Source of the DNA: Eledone cirrhosa | Taxonomy: Eukaryota | DNA: 64,000 nucleotides | Assembly: GCA_964016885.1 (NCBI GenBank) | Contig: OZ024761.1 | Coordinates: forward strand, 15,004,001 to 15,068,000 | Reading direction: 5' to 3' | Shown: piece by piece, positions 13,886 through 64,000 of the stretch | Layout: every line of letters begins with the position of its first letter | Numbering within the stretch: position 1 is the first letter of the stretch | The notes under the pieces: model-generated | Database searches by the model: none | Told to the model about the DNA's origin: nothing | Seen by the model: the letters and a program-made list of their open reading frames with translations, nothing else | Made by a program: the position numbers and the translations under genes

Positions 13886-14150
13886 AAGATCAAAAGATGG
13901 TTAAAAAAGTTCCATGTATTTTATTATGCGCATTTCAAAAACAAATATCATCATGCGATGACATTTGCGTTTTCGTCAGACAAAATAGGGAGACATGATA
14001 TGAAGGTTAAAAAACACTTGTGAATAGTGCAGTTTTAAATCAACATATCATTTATATATTATTTATACTCCAGTCCTACAAACTGTAGAGTGCTACTTAT
14101 CCGATATCTGCATTGCTTTATTGTACTACAATAAAACTCACCTCCTACAT
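13886..14150 (+). mobile_element. Penelope-like element: inverted arm joined to sense tail
   Basis: 13886-14045 matches 43042-43200; 14065-14150 is the reverse complement of 42948-43033; lies in (TA)n. Confidence 0.8.
13919..13986 (-). ncRNA. Hammerhead ribozyme, same family as 43252
   Basis: Minus strand ttttgt-CTGACGA-aaacgcaaatgtcatc..gatgatatttgttttt-GAAATGCGCATA-ataaaa. Confidence 0.85.
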
Positions 14151-14547
14151 ATATATATATATATATATATATATATATATATCAAAATATAATATACAGT
14201 TAGAAACTCACATATATATACACACACAAACTTTCTTGCACAAACACTATGATCACCCTATGTGTGTATGTATATATATATATATATATATATATATATA
14301 TATATATATGTATATATGTATACACACGTTACCAAATACCCCCTCCCCCCACCGCCGCTGCCCACCATGTTCCATTGTATTTTTCCTCTTCATCCTCCTT
14401 CCCAGAGTTCTAAGAAAGGAGAAAGACAGGTTTGTTTTTTTTTTTTGTTTTCTAATTTGTTGCCACCACCACCACCCTCACCATTGTTGTGTTGTTGTTG
14501 TTGTTGTTGTTGTTATTATTATTATTATCATTATTATTATCATTATA

Positions 14548-15840
14548 AGGGCGGTGGATTGGCAGTATCGGTAGAGTGTCGACACCATGCTTTGGAACAT
14601 AAAATTATGGCCCTTTACACTCTGAGTTCAAATCCAGCCGAGGTTAACATTGCCTTTCATCCTTACGGGGTCGATAAAATGAAGCACTTCCCCCTCCCCT
14701 TCAAATTGCTGGCCTTGTGCCTAAAGTAGAAACAATTATTACTATTAAGTATAAGCAGTGGATTGTAAGAATTGGTAGAGCATCAGACAATATGCTTCGC
14801 GGGATTGATAAAATAACGTATCAGTAATTCAGTAAAATAAAGTACCAGTAATTCAGTAAAATAAAGTACCAGTAATCCAGTAAAATAACGTACCAGTAAT
14901 TCAGTAAAATAAAGTACCAGTAATTCAGTAAAATAAAGTACCAGTAATTCAGTAAAATAAAGTACCAGTAATTCAGTAAAATAAAGTACCAGTAATTCAG
15001 TAAAATAAAGTACCAGTAATCCAGTAAAATAAAGTATCAGTAATCCAGTAAAATAAAGTACCAGTAATTCAATAAAATGAAGTACCGGTAATTCAGTAAA
15101 ATGAAGTAGCGGTAATTCAGTAAAATGAAGTACCGGCAATTCAGTAAAATGAAGTACCGGCAATTCAGTAAAATGAAGTACCAGTACTTCAGTAAAATAA
15201 AGTACCAGTAACACACTGGGGTCGATTAAAATCGACTTTCTCATCCACCAAAATTGATAGCCTTGTACCTAAATCAGAAACCATTTAGACAAATTTAACC
15301 TTGCCGGTATTTGGCCCTTTATGGTCTGAGTTCAAATCCCGCTGAGGTTAACTTCACCTTTCATTATTACGGGGTTGATAAATAAAGCACCAGTAATGCA
15401 CTGGGGTGATTGCTGGCCTTGTGCTAAAAATAAGAAACAACTATTATGAGAAAGGTAGATTGGCAGTATCGGTAGAGTGTTCAACAACGTGCTCTGAGGC
15501 ATAGAGTTATGACCCTTTACTGTCTGAGTTCAAATCCTGTGCCGAGGTTAGCTTTGCCTTTCATCATTACAGGGTGGATAAAATAAAGTACCAGTCACAC
15601 ACTGAGATTGATTTAATCGACATCTCCCCTTCCCCCAAATTGCTGGCCTTGTGCCTAGTAGAAACAGTATCGGTAGAGCGTCAGACACCATGCTTTGCAG
15701 CATAGAGTTATTGCTCTTTACGTTCTGAGTTCAAATTCGGTTGAGGTTAACTTTGCCTTTCATTCTTACGATAAAATGAAATACCAGTAATGTACTGGAG
15801 GTGATTGCTGGCCTTGTGCCAAGAGTAGGAACAATTATTA
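14548..15840 (+). mobile_element. Head-to-tail cluster of about 5 tRNA-derived SINEs with a Meta-like domain
   Basis: Unit tggcagtatcggtagagc...gagttcaaatccc...gcctttcatccttacggggtcgataaaataaagtaccag...gtagaaacaattattatt. Confidence 0.88.
14822..15210 (+). repeat. 24-bp tandem array inside a SINE
   Basis: gtaattcagtaaaataaagtacca x about 16. Confidence 0.95.
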
Positions 15841-16290
15841 TGGCAGTATTGTTATCACCATTATAGTTGTTGTTTACTTTTCATTTGTTTTTTTGTTTGC
15901 TTGTTTTGAAGCCCCTGTTTGTTTGTTTATCGATTCTTCATCCCCCGCCCCTGCCTTCAAGGCGGTGGGGGGGGGGGTCCTTTATAATTTTCTTTTTTTC
16001 CTGTTTTGTCTTCATATTTATTTATTTAATGTTTTTTTTTTATTTGTTTCTGTGTCTTAAATTGTTTTTATATAATTATTGAATTTTTATATTTTTTGTT
16101 GCTTTCGTTCAAAATTTTTCTTACCAATGTTGTTGTTGTTGTCACTTTGTTGTTGTCATCGTTGTCATTTTGTTATTGTTGTTGTCCTTGTATAAAATAT
16201 TTATCCAGTCTTGTCCAGTTATTGTATGAAAGACCTTATATAAATACTTACTTTATATACACATATATATATATATGTTGGTGTGTATAT

Positions 16291-17899
16291 CATCATCGTT
16301 TAACGTCCATTTTCCACGCTAGCATGGGTCTGGACGGGAATTGTCCCACTTGAGGCAAGATTGGTTGTCTTGCTCAGGACTGTCTGGCGGGTTTTCTACG
16401 GCTGGATGCCCTTCCTAACACCAACCACGTTTACAGTGTGGACTGGGAGGTTTTTACCGTGTTACCTACACGGCCACATTACAGCGTGGACTGTGTGTTT
16501 TTTTGTCGTGACACCTACACGACCTCATTTGTTTCGGACTGGATGTTGTGGTACCAACATAACTTCACATTTAAGGGGGTGGTGTGGATGGGGGTGTGGG
16601 TAGTGGGGCTGGGGTGTATTTTGTTAGAGGTGCCTACTGACTGTAGGTTTCGCTTTGTATTTAGGCAAGGCGGATCTTCTGTATAACTGTGTAGTGCCAA
16701 AGATCTCGGTCCAGTGACATTGTCTTAGAGAGGTGTAAGTGTGTGAGGTTGGAATTTATCAAGTCGTCCCAGGTTTTTCTGGGTCTGCCTACTACGTGGC
16801 TACCGTCTATTTTTATCGCCCTGCACATTTTTATACAGCTGTCGTCTTTCATACGCGTCACATGACCATACCAACATAGTCTTCTCTCAAGTAAACAACA
16901 TCTGATCCCTCTTATTCCTAATTTCTCCCTTAGTTCGTTTATGCTTTGCCATTCACGTATATTACTATTACACATCCAGTGAAGCATGCAAGCTTTGTTT
17001 CTCTCCAGTCTGCGTATATCCTCTGCACACAATGCCCAGGTCTCACTGCCATGTAACATTGCTGTTCGTATGCAGGCATCATACAGCCTGCCTTTCATTT
17101 TTAGAGAGAACCCTTTAGCGGCCAATAGTGGTATAAGCTCTCTGAACTTTTTCCATCCCGTTCTGACTCTAGCTACTGTACTTTCAGAGCACCCTCCCCC
17201 ACTGCTGATTTTGTCACCCAGGTAACGGAAGCTGTCCACTATTTCTATAGAACCATCTGTGCAATGGAATGAGCTAGTATTCTGTGGGCACTTGCTGCTA
17301 CTTATTGCACCAGAGCACCGGCCACATGTAAAATCTATGTTCTTGGTTAGCTTACCTGTGATCCCACTACATCTTTTATGCACCCATACTTTGCATTTAG
17401 GACATAAAATGGAGTTTCTACCTACGCCTTTCCTACACACTGAGCATGGCCATTTCCCAGATGGGACCGGTGCCCTATTTTCCTTCCTACAAACTAGAAC
17501 TTTAGTCTTAGACAAGTTAACTTTAAGGCCTTTTGATTCTAGGCCATGCTTCCATGTTTGGAATTTCTTCTCTAGTTACACCATTGATTCAGCTATGAGC
17601 ATTAGATCATCTGCATATAGGAGTTCCCATGGGCAGCCGGTCTTGAACTCCTCTGTTATAGCCTGAAGGGCAATAATAAATAGTAGGGGGCTAAGGACAG
17701 AGCCCTGATGAACACCAACTTTTACGCTAAACTCTTCACTATATTCGTTGTTAATTCTAACCTTGCTGACTGTTTCTTTATACATGGCTTGTATAGCTCT
17801 CACAAGCCATTCATCAATACCTAGTTTTCTAAGGGCCCACCAGATAATCGAGCGGGGTACTCTGTCAAAGGCTTTCTCCAAGTCAACAAAGGCTAAGTA
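16291..17899 (-). mobile_element. 5'-truncated RTE-type non-LTR retrotransposon (RT C-terminal half, 3' UTR, (GAT)n tail)
   Basis: AFVDLEKAFDRVP, GVHQGSVLSPLLF, LLYADDL, KTK, FRYLG, MLHGSETW, WYGHV, GRPRKTW; one in-frame stop at 17576-17578; ORF ends 16661; 3' end ...gctagcgtggaaaatggacgttaaacgatgatg. Confidence 0.95.
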
Positions 17900-18439
17900 T
17901 ATATATATAAATATGTATATTGGTGTGTATGTATATAAATATGTATGTATGTGTGTATGTGAATATATATGTATGTATATTATATTGTTTCTCTTTCTTT
18001 ATATAAATATAAATATATATATATATGTATGTGTGTGTGTGTATATATTTGTGTATGTATATACATATGTGTATATATTTATCTGTGTGTGTATGTATTT
18101 ATATATGTGTATATAAATATGTATATGTGTATATATATGTATATGTGTGTGTTTATATATATATATATATATATACTACTCACACCAATGACACCACTGC
18201 ACCCTCACAAAAAATAGAATACATTACCTAATGTACTCCAAAACACTCCATTGCCCTCATCATCATCATCATCACCATGAGTTGCTCTTATGCCATCTAT
18301 GTGTGATGGTCTAAATCTGTTAACTAGTGTAACACGAATGCCACCAGCACCACCAGGCTTTTGGGTGATCTTTTGTTGCCAGTATTCAGGCAAGGTCTAG
18401 GGTTTGAGAGTACCTTCCTCATTTCTTTTGTTTCTTCTA

Positions 18440-63036: not shown

Positions 63037-63135
63037 GAAGAAGAAGGAGTCGAAGAAGAAGGAGTCGAAGAAGAAGGAGCCGAAGAAGAAGGAGTCGAAG
63101 AAGAAGGAGTCGAAGAAGAAGGAGTCGAAGAAGAA
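63037..63135. repeat. 15-bp tandem repeat
   Basis: gaagaagaaggagtc x about 6. Confidence 0.9.
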
Positions 63136-63533
63136 ACGGTGGAAAGGATGGAGTAGGGAATGAGAGATAATGACATGAAAAACACTGGGAAAACTAAACT
63201 CTAGGCTTGGCCCCTTTAATTAACCTTCTCTGATCAGAGAAATAACATATACACACACATACACCTGCACATACGGACAAACATATACTCTCAAACACAT
63301 ATAAATAACCCTTACCCTCACTCCACTCCATTCCACCACATACATGCTCACATATTCACACACTCACATATTCATACCCTCACACACACAGAGAGAGCTC
63401 CCGCCTAAATCCCCTCTGCAACTCTCACACACATCACCACTCTCCCCCATTCTCAAACTCAGTCCCTAAACATTACTCAACTCGCGCCCCCCTCACTCAT
63501 CCTCCACATACACACTAGCAACACTAATAAACC

Positions 63534-63725
63534 ATGTTTAAACAGCCAGGGGCCATCTGTGGTGGGGTGTTGTTGCTCCTACTGGCCTCAACGTTTGGAG
63601 ATTCTCTACACAATTCTTCTGAACACACAACTCCCAAAAATGTACCTGAGGATCTGTTACTATTTCTTGCAGACAAATACGACTCCAAGCTTGGATATTT
63701 TGATTTGATGTCCCTCGTGCCTTTG
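63534..63725 (+). CDS. Probable first coding exon of an unidentified secreted or membrane protein
   Basis: accATG start, signal-peptide-like MFKQPGAICGGVLLLLLASTFG-DS, 64 non-repetitive codons, donor TTG|GTAAGA at 63726 (phase 0). An alternative is a 54-nt internal exon from the ttcttgcAG acceptor near 63671. Confidence 0.55.
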
Positions 63726-63919
63726 GTAAGATTTTTTTTTGTGTACGGTTTTCCTTATATTGTATATTGTTGTTACTATTACTGTTATTGATGTTGTAGT
63801 TGTTGTATACAAACATACATTCTATATAATATCTAAGTATCGAGTACTCTGGTGTGTTATGGGTCACCTGGTTTCTTACCACACTTTCTTTGTTATATAT
63901 ATATATATATGTATATATA

Positions 63920-64000
63920 TATAGAGTGAAGCATGTCCAGAGAATTATGCTTTACTCTATAGTATTTCGCTCTGATTAATTTATTAATTCTCCATTGAGC
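63920..64000 (+). mobile_element. Short fold-back with tail, cut by the window end
   Basis: tatagagtgaagcat / atgctttactctata, then GCTC-tg...ca-tt-GAGC. Confidence 0.6.

Follow-up and report, generated by a model that had tools for sequence, protein, structure and literature searches.

A conserved, covarying hairpin next to the inversion end point of Penelope-like insertions in Eledone cirrhosa

In this work, we have analysed 64,000 nucleotides of Eledone cirrhosa DNA (contig OZ024761.1, positions 15,004,001 to 15,068,000; the window), and our results show that a small hairpin is conserved just past the point, P, at which fold-back insertions begin their inverted copy. The consensus is RCTC, an upper stem of 3-4 bp, a variable loop, a 2-nt 3' bulge starting with T, and GAGY, usually followed immediately by NCT, a conserved element absent from the motif as given in the preliminary description. 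The hairpin itself appears to be new; the inverted pLTR plus tail layout of its carriers was already known. These carriers are most likely 5'-truncated, hammerhead-bearing, (TA)n-targeting insertions of Penelope-like elements (PLEs) of the Hydra clade. Since the motif adjoins a start of DNA copying and also occurs in coral and sea cucumber relatives, it probably gives the element's enzyme a hold on the element RNA.

The carriers share one layout, namely inverted arm, direct arm, often a hammerhead, P, hairpin, 28-72 nt and (TA)n. They are listed below in window coordinates.

42947..43355, minus: fold-back insertion in (TA)n, most likely a PLE, with inverted arm, direct arm, P near 43031-43034 and a 59-nt tail remainder
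43006..43030, minus: hairpin ACTC-stem-loop-TA-GAGT
43088..43135, minus: hammerhead core of the direct arm, predicted to cleave 50 nt ahead of the hairpin and mirrored at 43258-43305 (plus)
13886..14148, plus: insertion of the 43006 family, inverted arm ~165 nt, direct arm ~12 nt; hammerhead 13932-13979 (minus), hairpin 14067-14091
23861..24200, plus: fold-back insertion; hammerhead cores 24014-24056 (plus) and 23922-23964 (minus), hairpin 24120-24139
24948..25064, plus: extra instance found by the model, with hammerhead 3' half, hairpin 24995-25020 (one T.G pair), tail and (TA)n; lacks an inverted arm
45464..45663, plus: fold-back insertion ("45460 family"); hairpin 45592-45615
28916..29469, no single strand: three nested copies of the 45592 family; hairpins 29026-29049 (plus, decayed), 29198-29221 (minus) and 29398-29421 (plus, outer pair broken)
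39540..39755, plus: fold-back of the 45592 family; hairpin 39682-39705, one pair broken
45768..45791, plus: hairpin of the 45592 family, second copy
62291..62314, plus: hairpin of the 45592 family, third dispersed copy
35328..35726, minus: fold-back insertion; hairpin 35377-35457, ~60 nt in the loop
35935..36102, plus: short fold-back insertion; hairpin 36017-36044
37726..37863, plus: short fold-back insertion related to 40030; hairpin 37801-37821
38189..38417, plus: fold-back insertion; hammerhead core 38233-38258, hairpin 38324-38345
39989..40180, minus: insertion with a long inverted arm holding a whole hammerhead (40086-40136, plus) and almost no direct arm; hairpin 40030-40050
41767..42011, minus: fold-back insertion; hairpin 41795-41868, TA run in the loop
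57039..57198, plus: short fold-back insertion; hairpin 57139-57160
61905..62178, minus: fold-back insertion, arms 61944-61978 and 62144-62178; hairpin 61914-61933
61977..62115, plus: 5' part of U2 snRNA between these arms (Rfam U2, 85.6 bits)
22574..22593, minus: hairpin of the 61914 family, lacking a clear TA-anchored fold-back
63923..64000, plus: short fold-back; hairpin 63969-64000, cut by the window end

All instances named in the preliminary description are present in the window sequence, with two coordinates corrected: the hairpin of the "45460 family" lies at 45592-45615, and the one placed at 35384-35457 spans 35377-35457. Its loop range of about 4 to over 50 nt was right in that the loop is variable, while the extreme lengths are insertions, that at 41795 containing the TA run. 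The carriers had also been called unrelated families; they are instead diverged relatives.

The window copies show the traits of endonuclease-bearing (EN+) PLEs, namely a 5'-truncated pLTR copy lying inverted next to the direct one, a tail on one side only and, upstream of this tail, a type I hammerhead within the pLTR, as well as the insertion into (TA)n that is typical of the Hydra clade. The tail hairpin, common by eye to the window copies and Hydra consensi, is proposed as a further marker, unpublished as such. Type I hammerhead cores or 3' halves occur in six window families and three fetched loci, the other copies being too short, and in the 43006, 24120, 38324, 41795 and 45592/39683 families they stand 27-59 nt upstream of the hairpin (27 nt by eye). 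Rfam hammerhead models were not among the matches listed (150 of 382 for the window) or on seven fetched loci. An ORF for a PLE reverse transcriptase (RT) with GIY-YIG endonuclease was not found with short protein motifs in the window or in 262 loci, all copies being shorter than 450 nt; the clade link therefore rests on motif, target and hammerhead, from which these ORF-less copies would be Hydra members. Further characters of the Hydra clade are protein traits (RWK, DKT, no CCHH, a CxCX5C linker) and its place in the RT phylogeny. We rejected Naiad as the source, since canonical hammerheads are present here and absent in Naiad, and five cephalopod Naiad consensi lack the hairpin at their 3' ends (by eye). 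A MITE or other DNA transposon was likewise rejected, since the inverted repeat stops at P and the tail is one-sided, so that there are no terminal inverted repeats at both ends.

When the window was searched for the hairpin (3 or more inner pairs, an inner part up to 30 nt long and the 2-nt 3' bulge), we obtained 14 matches at 13 sites, since 40030 scored on both strands, from about seven families. Dinucleotide shuffling gave 1.4 +/- 1.3 matches in 200-nt blocks (maximum 5) and 1.3 +/- 1.1 in 1000-nt blocks (maximum 4), with 100 shuffles each, so the excess over shuffled sequence that the preliminary description had made a check of its motif is clear. Control bulges of 0, 1, 3, 4 and 5 nt gave 2, 0, 1, 3 and 4 matches in the window, and a mismatched outer pair gave one. 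Rfam holds no family for the hairpin: the 150 window matches listed of 382 were U2 and low-complexity miRNA look-alikes, and seven fetched loci gave none. A description of the motif was not found in searches of the literature outside subscription papers and Repbase entries.

In the alignment of instances 99% of the cells are paired, and four of the seven pairs have changed on both sides. The covariation score, computed on instances picked for having the motif and with kinship ignored, was 0.56, against 0.22 +/- 0.04 when shuffled and at most 0.18 when slid. The A-T outer pair was found only in this genome and may therefore reflect a single change. Most pairs are Watson-Crick and could fold on either strand. 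The wobbles favour neither strand (about four sense-strand T.G or G.T against three A.C or C.A, decayed copies included and partly by eye), energy folding singles out no strand, and for several instances the minimum-energy fold of the surrounding sequence is a different one. A role of GAGY-RCTC as a self-complementary dimer site was discarded, the central bases being unpaired in the commonest form.

Outside the window, the hairpin is exact, by eye, in three of the six published Hydra-clade consensi (PMC8557442, File S7), namely at the 3' ends of Hydra-2_Amil and Hydra-2_Ajap and at the very start of the unit, twice in tandem, in Hydra-1_Ajap; two further consensi hold near matches and one is not covered. 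In Naiad, the 3' ends of the 8 of 54 consensi checked by eye, whole or in part, lack it; the Naiad consensus Mmer has a match ~480 nt from its 3' end, and for the remaining 46 consensi and the Chlamys file the search covered 12 short terms. Of the 118 loci from a metagenome scan, 15 combine a Watson-Crick outer pair with at least 3 stem pairs, and ACT, which was not part of the query, follows GAGY in 7 of these 15 versus 2 of the 103 others (p ~4e-6), compared with none of six viral loci with the same pairing features. A hammerhead adjoins the hairpin in three of these seven metagenome contigs, and locus L162 is a near match lacking hammerhead and TA run. Two viral-contig scans (120 and 24 loci) gave background only, with a hammerhead core in none of the 24.

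Could the motif simply have been inherited, with no selection on its structure, or have arisen from choosing hairpins in AT-rich DNA? The instances were selected for pairing, the core has only 10-11 fixed bases, and chance accounts for most matches to the sequence pattern in public contigs, neither the pairing nor the ACT being seen at 101 of 118 metagenome loci and 112 of 120 viral ones. Yet the pairs persist, in several pair types, across families whose tails do not align with each other, and neither the published consensi nor the two model matches outside the training set (window 24995 and a second copy at locus L180, both following a hammerhead) had been chosen for pairing. The model gave nothing below E 0.7 in 100 viral loci. 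We regard either possibility as very unlikely.

The hairpin is tied in position to P. When arms directly abutting a TA run were searched for automatically, 16 rows were obtained, of which six were discarded (one low-complexity, four tail-less or MITE-like palindromes and one inside a LINE remnant). In eight of the ten tailed fold-backs kept, the motif stands ~4-12 nt past P, two of the eight with one deviation; 27922-28327 and 55870-56050 lack it. The offset is 0-10 nt by local alignment and 4-12 nt by exact extension in 11 of 13 elements, close to the 4-10 nt first estimated, the other two reaching 16 nt because a substitution halted the exact extension. From the hairpin to the tail end we measured 28-72 nt in 11 of 12 cases, and alternating TA of at least 3 nt occurs at P in 6 of 13 elements against a background of 6.5%. 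Contigs of one family end at two discrete places, P and the tail end: in run X1, with 3705 contigs of the 43006 family, TA loose ends sit at 42947 (tail end, 15) and 43030 (P, 32). Stem variants at 5% were not found in this run, a result not significant given the count of variable sites. The changes on both sides of the pairs, the position at P, the two ends in one family and the occurrence in Hydra-clade consensi of other phyla thus support one part of the interpretation in the preliminary description, namely a cis-acting structure that is conserved, covaries and is linked to the place where the inverted copy begins.

The hairpin might instead act as an RNA signal in the 5' leader, serving packaging, control of translation or folding of the hammerhead, with P set otherwise, for example by a TAT stretch or a fixed distance to the hammerhead. 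In Hydra-1_Ajap, and in variant form in Hydra-1_Crog, it does precede the ORF at the unit start, and protein binding assists hammerhead cleavage (PMC11167929). However, its distance to P is far tighter than that to the hammerhead or to the tail end, and we consider this reading rather unlikely.

The arms themselves carry information on how the copies were made. The inverted arm is far longer than the direct arm at 14067, 40030 and locus L180, and a U2 snRNA piece is joined 5' of an inverted arm, in the same orientation and starting at the U2 5' end. This fusion and the unequal arms indicate a separately primed cDNA, and argue for two priming events over self-priming. They also bear on a role in single-stranded DNA, in which a hairpin on the first cDNA or the displaced strand would be a cut or stop signal for the GIY-YIG endonuclease or the RT, ending the inverted copy at P. 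The mostly Watson-Crick pairs, foldable on either strand, would allow this, and the tail is reported to be required for plasmid cutting by the D. virilis endonuclease (Pyatkov 2004, as cited in PMC11167929); but self-copying of a first cDNA cannot yield an inverted arm longer than the direct arm, and the U2 piece, which starts at the U2 5' end, is oriented as expected of a cDNA from the P end. A DNA signal therefore seems improbable to us.

On balance we favour, with moderate confidence, the hairpin as an RNA signal that would load the protein and fix the start at P. It opens the tail, and in the tandem unit this stretch doubles as the 5' leader of the ORF. The RT-endonuclease would bind the RNA hairpin and nick (TA)n on both strands; the direct copy and its tail would arise from one nick, priming ~30-70 nt 3' of the hairpin, and the inverted copy, beginning at P, from the other, priming a few bases 5' of it and often on a TAT-like stretch able to pair with the target. 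Both cDNAs would stop early and be joined head to head. More tentatively, the hairpin may be a clade-wide RNA anchor (cnidarians, echinoderms, crustaceans and this genome), from which a telomerase-related RT would measure its start site, in the way that telomerase delimits its template via a bound helix, and a dimer bound there would prime the two target strands to either side of it.

The way in which PLEs form their inverted copies and one-sided tails has been posed as an open question (PMC8557442), and only one PLE has been studied in vitro. If correct, the RNA-anchor reading would explain this signature, and a clade-wide anchor would make ~25-100 nt a portable signal directing any RNA into (TA)n. 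With its short length, its covariation and its fixed spacing to the end of the inversion, the hairpin lends itself to exact experiments in which the stem is broken, restored or shifted. Hydra-clade insertions that are too short for an ORF, and that appear abundant (3705 contigs in one run, for one family), may also be recognisable by it.

Among known systems, the C-terminal EN+ PLEs of the Hydra clade (Craig et al. 2021, PMC8557442) share with the window copies the (TA)n target, a canonical hammerhead in the pLTR and the hairpin in their consensi; they differ in tails given as 30-40 nt, against 80-137 nt from P to the end in the window's fold-backs, which lack an ORF. The main text of that report reports no tail motif and uses neither "hairpin" nor "stem-loop". 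The inverted pLTR plus tail insertions of Arkhipova et al. (2013, PMC3846280) likewise have a head-to-head inverted copy and an optional tail at one end. There the inversions were explained by self-priming on an antisense template, whereas the long inverted arms and the U2 fusion seen here fit a second priming event better. In the eel LINE UnaL2 (PMC1636434), a small conserved 3' tail stem-loop with a bulge needed for retrotransposition probably works similarly, although element class and sequence differ and a single RT start lies at the RNA 3' end rather than two internal starts flanking the hairpin. Another comparable system is PAc, a Poseidon PLE of Anolis (Frangieh et al. 2024, PMC11167929), in which reverse transcription begins within an RNA stem-loop and two RT start sites delimit the tail; both DNA strands are nicked and extended, and a hammerhead lies upstream. 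PAc belongs to another clade, with an ATT target and an AC-rich stem-loop lacking RCTC/GAGY, and neither cross-family conservation nor covariation was reported for it. The motif is absent, by eye, from the PAc RNA printed in that report, and therefore the lizard result serves as an analogy only, by which the two contig ends, P and the tail end, would match the two reverse-transcription starts of the lizard element.

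At 34% GC and with 231 TA runs, this window of animal DNA is AT-rich, and all the RCTC-stem-loop-2 nt-GAGY hairpins listed in the preliminary description were located in it. When at least three inner pairs are required and the inner part is limited to 30 nt, the window holds 14 matches, representing 13 sites and about seven families, against 1.3–1.4 matches in block dinucleotide shuffles (maxima 5 and 4, of 100 shuffles), so the motif is commoner here than in the shuffled controls by which its enrichment was to be judged. Bulge lengths other than 2 nt gave 0–4 matches in the window, and a mismatched outer pair gave one. 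Run on the window, a covariance model trained on 16 instances finds the instances with short loops again, along with degraded 45592-family copies, and adds one site not seen before, 24995; on 100 viral loci it gave no match below E 0.7.

Covariation of the stem is also seen, with a score of 0.56 vs 0.22 ± 0.04 in shuffles (0/500 reach 0.56), in a set of 16 instances (nine from the window and seven loci) that were chosen for the motif with kinship ignored, so that the score is not tree-corrected. Paired cells amount to 99.1%; three pairs (CTC/GAG) are invariant and four change on both sides, a number that does not by itself exceed the shuffled values (150 of 500). Slid partners score at most 0.18. 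Each pair of the upper stem comes in three to five types, with more supplied by published consensi, and the A-T outer pair occurs, among these 16 instances, in the Eledone genome only.

The hairpin has a defined place in the insertions that carry it, whose order is (TA)n, inverted arm, junction, direct arm, the fold-back end P, a few bases, the hairpin, the rest of the tail and (TA)n. Arms abutting a TA run were sought automatically; of the 16 rows obtained, six were removed for low complexity, as MITE-like palindromes lacking a tail or as a repeat within a LINE. The motif is present in 8 of the 10 retained fold-backs, the other two having 45-nt tails without it. Its offset from P is 0–10 nt by local alignment, and 4–12 nt in 11/13 elements by exact extension, which bears out the positional link to the fold-back end that had been described. 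The distance from hairpin to microsatellite is 28–72 nt in 11 of the 12 elements measured and 9 nt in one. Where the direct copy holds both, the hammerhead lies upstream, 27–59 nt from the hairpin.

Hammerheads in the arms
43006/14067, 24120, 38324, 40030, 41795, 45592/39683 and 24995 families: hammerhead cores or 3′ halves

In the public sequencing run X1, 3705 contigs match the 43006 element, and TA loose ends occur at 42947 in 15 of them and at 43030 in 32; run X7 has one TA loose end at each of these positions. Thus, copies of the 43006 family end at two discrete points, P and the end of the tail. Further repeats of the window are as follows.

43030–43048: loose ends at 43048 (X1, X7) point to a sister 43006 subfamily, with different sequence beside P and an identical hairpin 5′ arm
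27922–28327 and 55870–56050: almost perfect palindromes whose arms, of 203 bp and 86 bp, abut TA or TA/GA runs; both have a 45-nt tail without the hairpin; perhaps another lineage of Penelope-like elements (PLEs)
34852–34929, 52950–53030 and 51300–51378: short palindromes without tail, TA on both sides; the first two have common ends and a MITE-like look
39780–39965 (−): 35377-family copy without tail, about 120 nt inserted in hammerhead stem II (by eye)
23070–23440 and 24230–24810: repeat family of tandem short units plus an inverted part, ends adjoining TA runs
16661–17998 (−), 57541–57906 (−) and 63538–63830 (−): LINE remnants (parts of a reverse-transcriptase ORF and one C-terminal part)
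6019–58400: abundant dispersed 150–200-nt repeat, SINE-like, often tandem (e.g. 28489–28885, 49324–50097)
53412–53738 and 53782–54108: exact 327-nt tandem duplication, either recent or an assembly artefact
31564–34300 (+): long threonine/proline-rich and histidine-rich repeat frames

Independent occurrences were found in metagenome contigs. A scan in which the outer pair, most of the stem pairs and the bases further downstream were unconstrained gave 118 loci from 2/64 parts of the collection, most of them chance matches, and 15 have a Watson-Crick outer pair and at least three stem pairs. ACT follows GAGY in 7 of these 15 vs 2 of the remaining 103 (Fisher p about 4e-6), and in 0 of 6 comparable viral loci. 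Two loci, L154 and L234, have a hammerhead 45–50 nt upstream of the hairpin, and in L180 an inverted copy of the hammerhead abuts TA and is followed by the hairpin, the same arrangement as at window 40030; in a further L180 copy, which the model found although it lay outside the training set, a hammerhead again precedes the hairpin. L162 is a near match without hammerhead or TA run.

A 5′-truncated copy in inverted orientation, a tail on one side only and a pLTR hammerhead are described as the signature of endonuclease-bearing PLEs in PMC8557442, PMC3846280 and PMC4209133, and in section 11 and File S1/S2 of PMC8557442 Hydra is the PLE clade in which (TA)n targets and canonical hammerheads occur together. 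Six Hydra consensi (File S7, PMC8557442) were inspected by eye. The 3′ ends of Hydra-2_Amil and Hydra-2_Ajap consist of a hammerhead, about 40 nt, an exact hairpin and then 27–28 nt, while in Hydra-1_Ajap two tandem copies of an exact hairpin open the consensus, before the ORF. Hydra-1_Crog carries two variants: its 3′ end has a hairpin with one mismatch, and its 5′ start has a GCCC/GGGC form. The hairpin of Hydra-1_Amil is a wobble variant whose upper stem is weak, and the Hydra-1_Obim consensus stops before the tail. None of the 8 (of 54) Naiad consensi inspected whole or in part has the hairpin at its 3′ end; Naiad_Mmer has one motif match about 480 nt from the consensus end. Because the window copies carry no ORF, we only infer that they belong to Hydra.

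In a Poseidon element, both target strands are nicked and extended, and two internal RT start sites delimit the tail, the main one within a stem-loop (PMC11167929). Three features of our elements agree with two such priming events. At 14067, 40030 and L180, the inverted arm is longer than 100 nt and contains a complete hammerhead, and the direct arm is shorter than 20 nt; since an arm copied by fold-back from the first cDNA cannot outgrow its template, barring later deletion, unequal arms fit two events. In 6/13 elements (two of the six belong to one family), the match at P ends in an alternating TA stretch of at least 3 nt, vs 6.5% of nearby positions. Between the arms of the 61914 element lies the 5′ part of U2 snRNA (61977–62115 (+); Rfam 85.6 bits), 5′ of the inverted arm, in the arm's sense and beginning at the U2 5′ end. 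This single case fits the leftover expected of a cDNA begun at P and then switched onto U2 RNA; the fusion is an snRNA-retroelement chimera, and a literature search found no published PLE-snRNA case.

The offset of the hairpin to P is tighter than its offsets to the hammerhead or the tail end, from which we infer that the element's protein probably binds the hairpin and primes just 5′ of it. The recognition structure claimed in the preliminary description is partly supported, by its covariation, its narrow offset to P and the two discrete ends of one family. Less probably, the hairpin acts as DNA. Wobble pairs and folding energies favour neither strand, and in favour of DNA the D. virilis endonuclease reportedly needs tail DNA, according to work cited in PMC11167929.

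The insertion layout and the two-start idea are already known. No description of a conserved hairpin in the tail turned up in the literature searched, which consisted of open text without subscription papers, entries of Repbase or images of figures, nor in the PMC8557442 main text or passages of a 2026 preprint on retrozymes and PLEs. Rfam gave no family for it among the 150 of 382 window matches listed or on seven loci. On a comparison with six Hydra consensi and 8 of the 54 Naiad consensi, we rate it as a new cis-element in a known kind of retroelement. Its closest functional precedent is the bulged 3′ hairpin of UnaL2 (PMC1636434).
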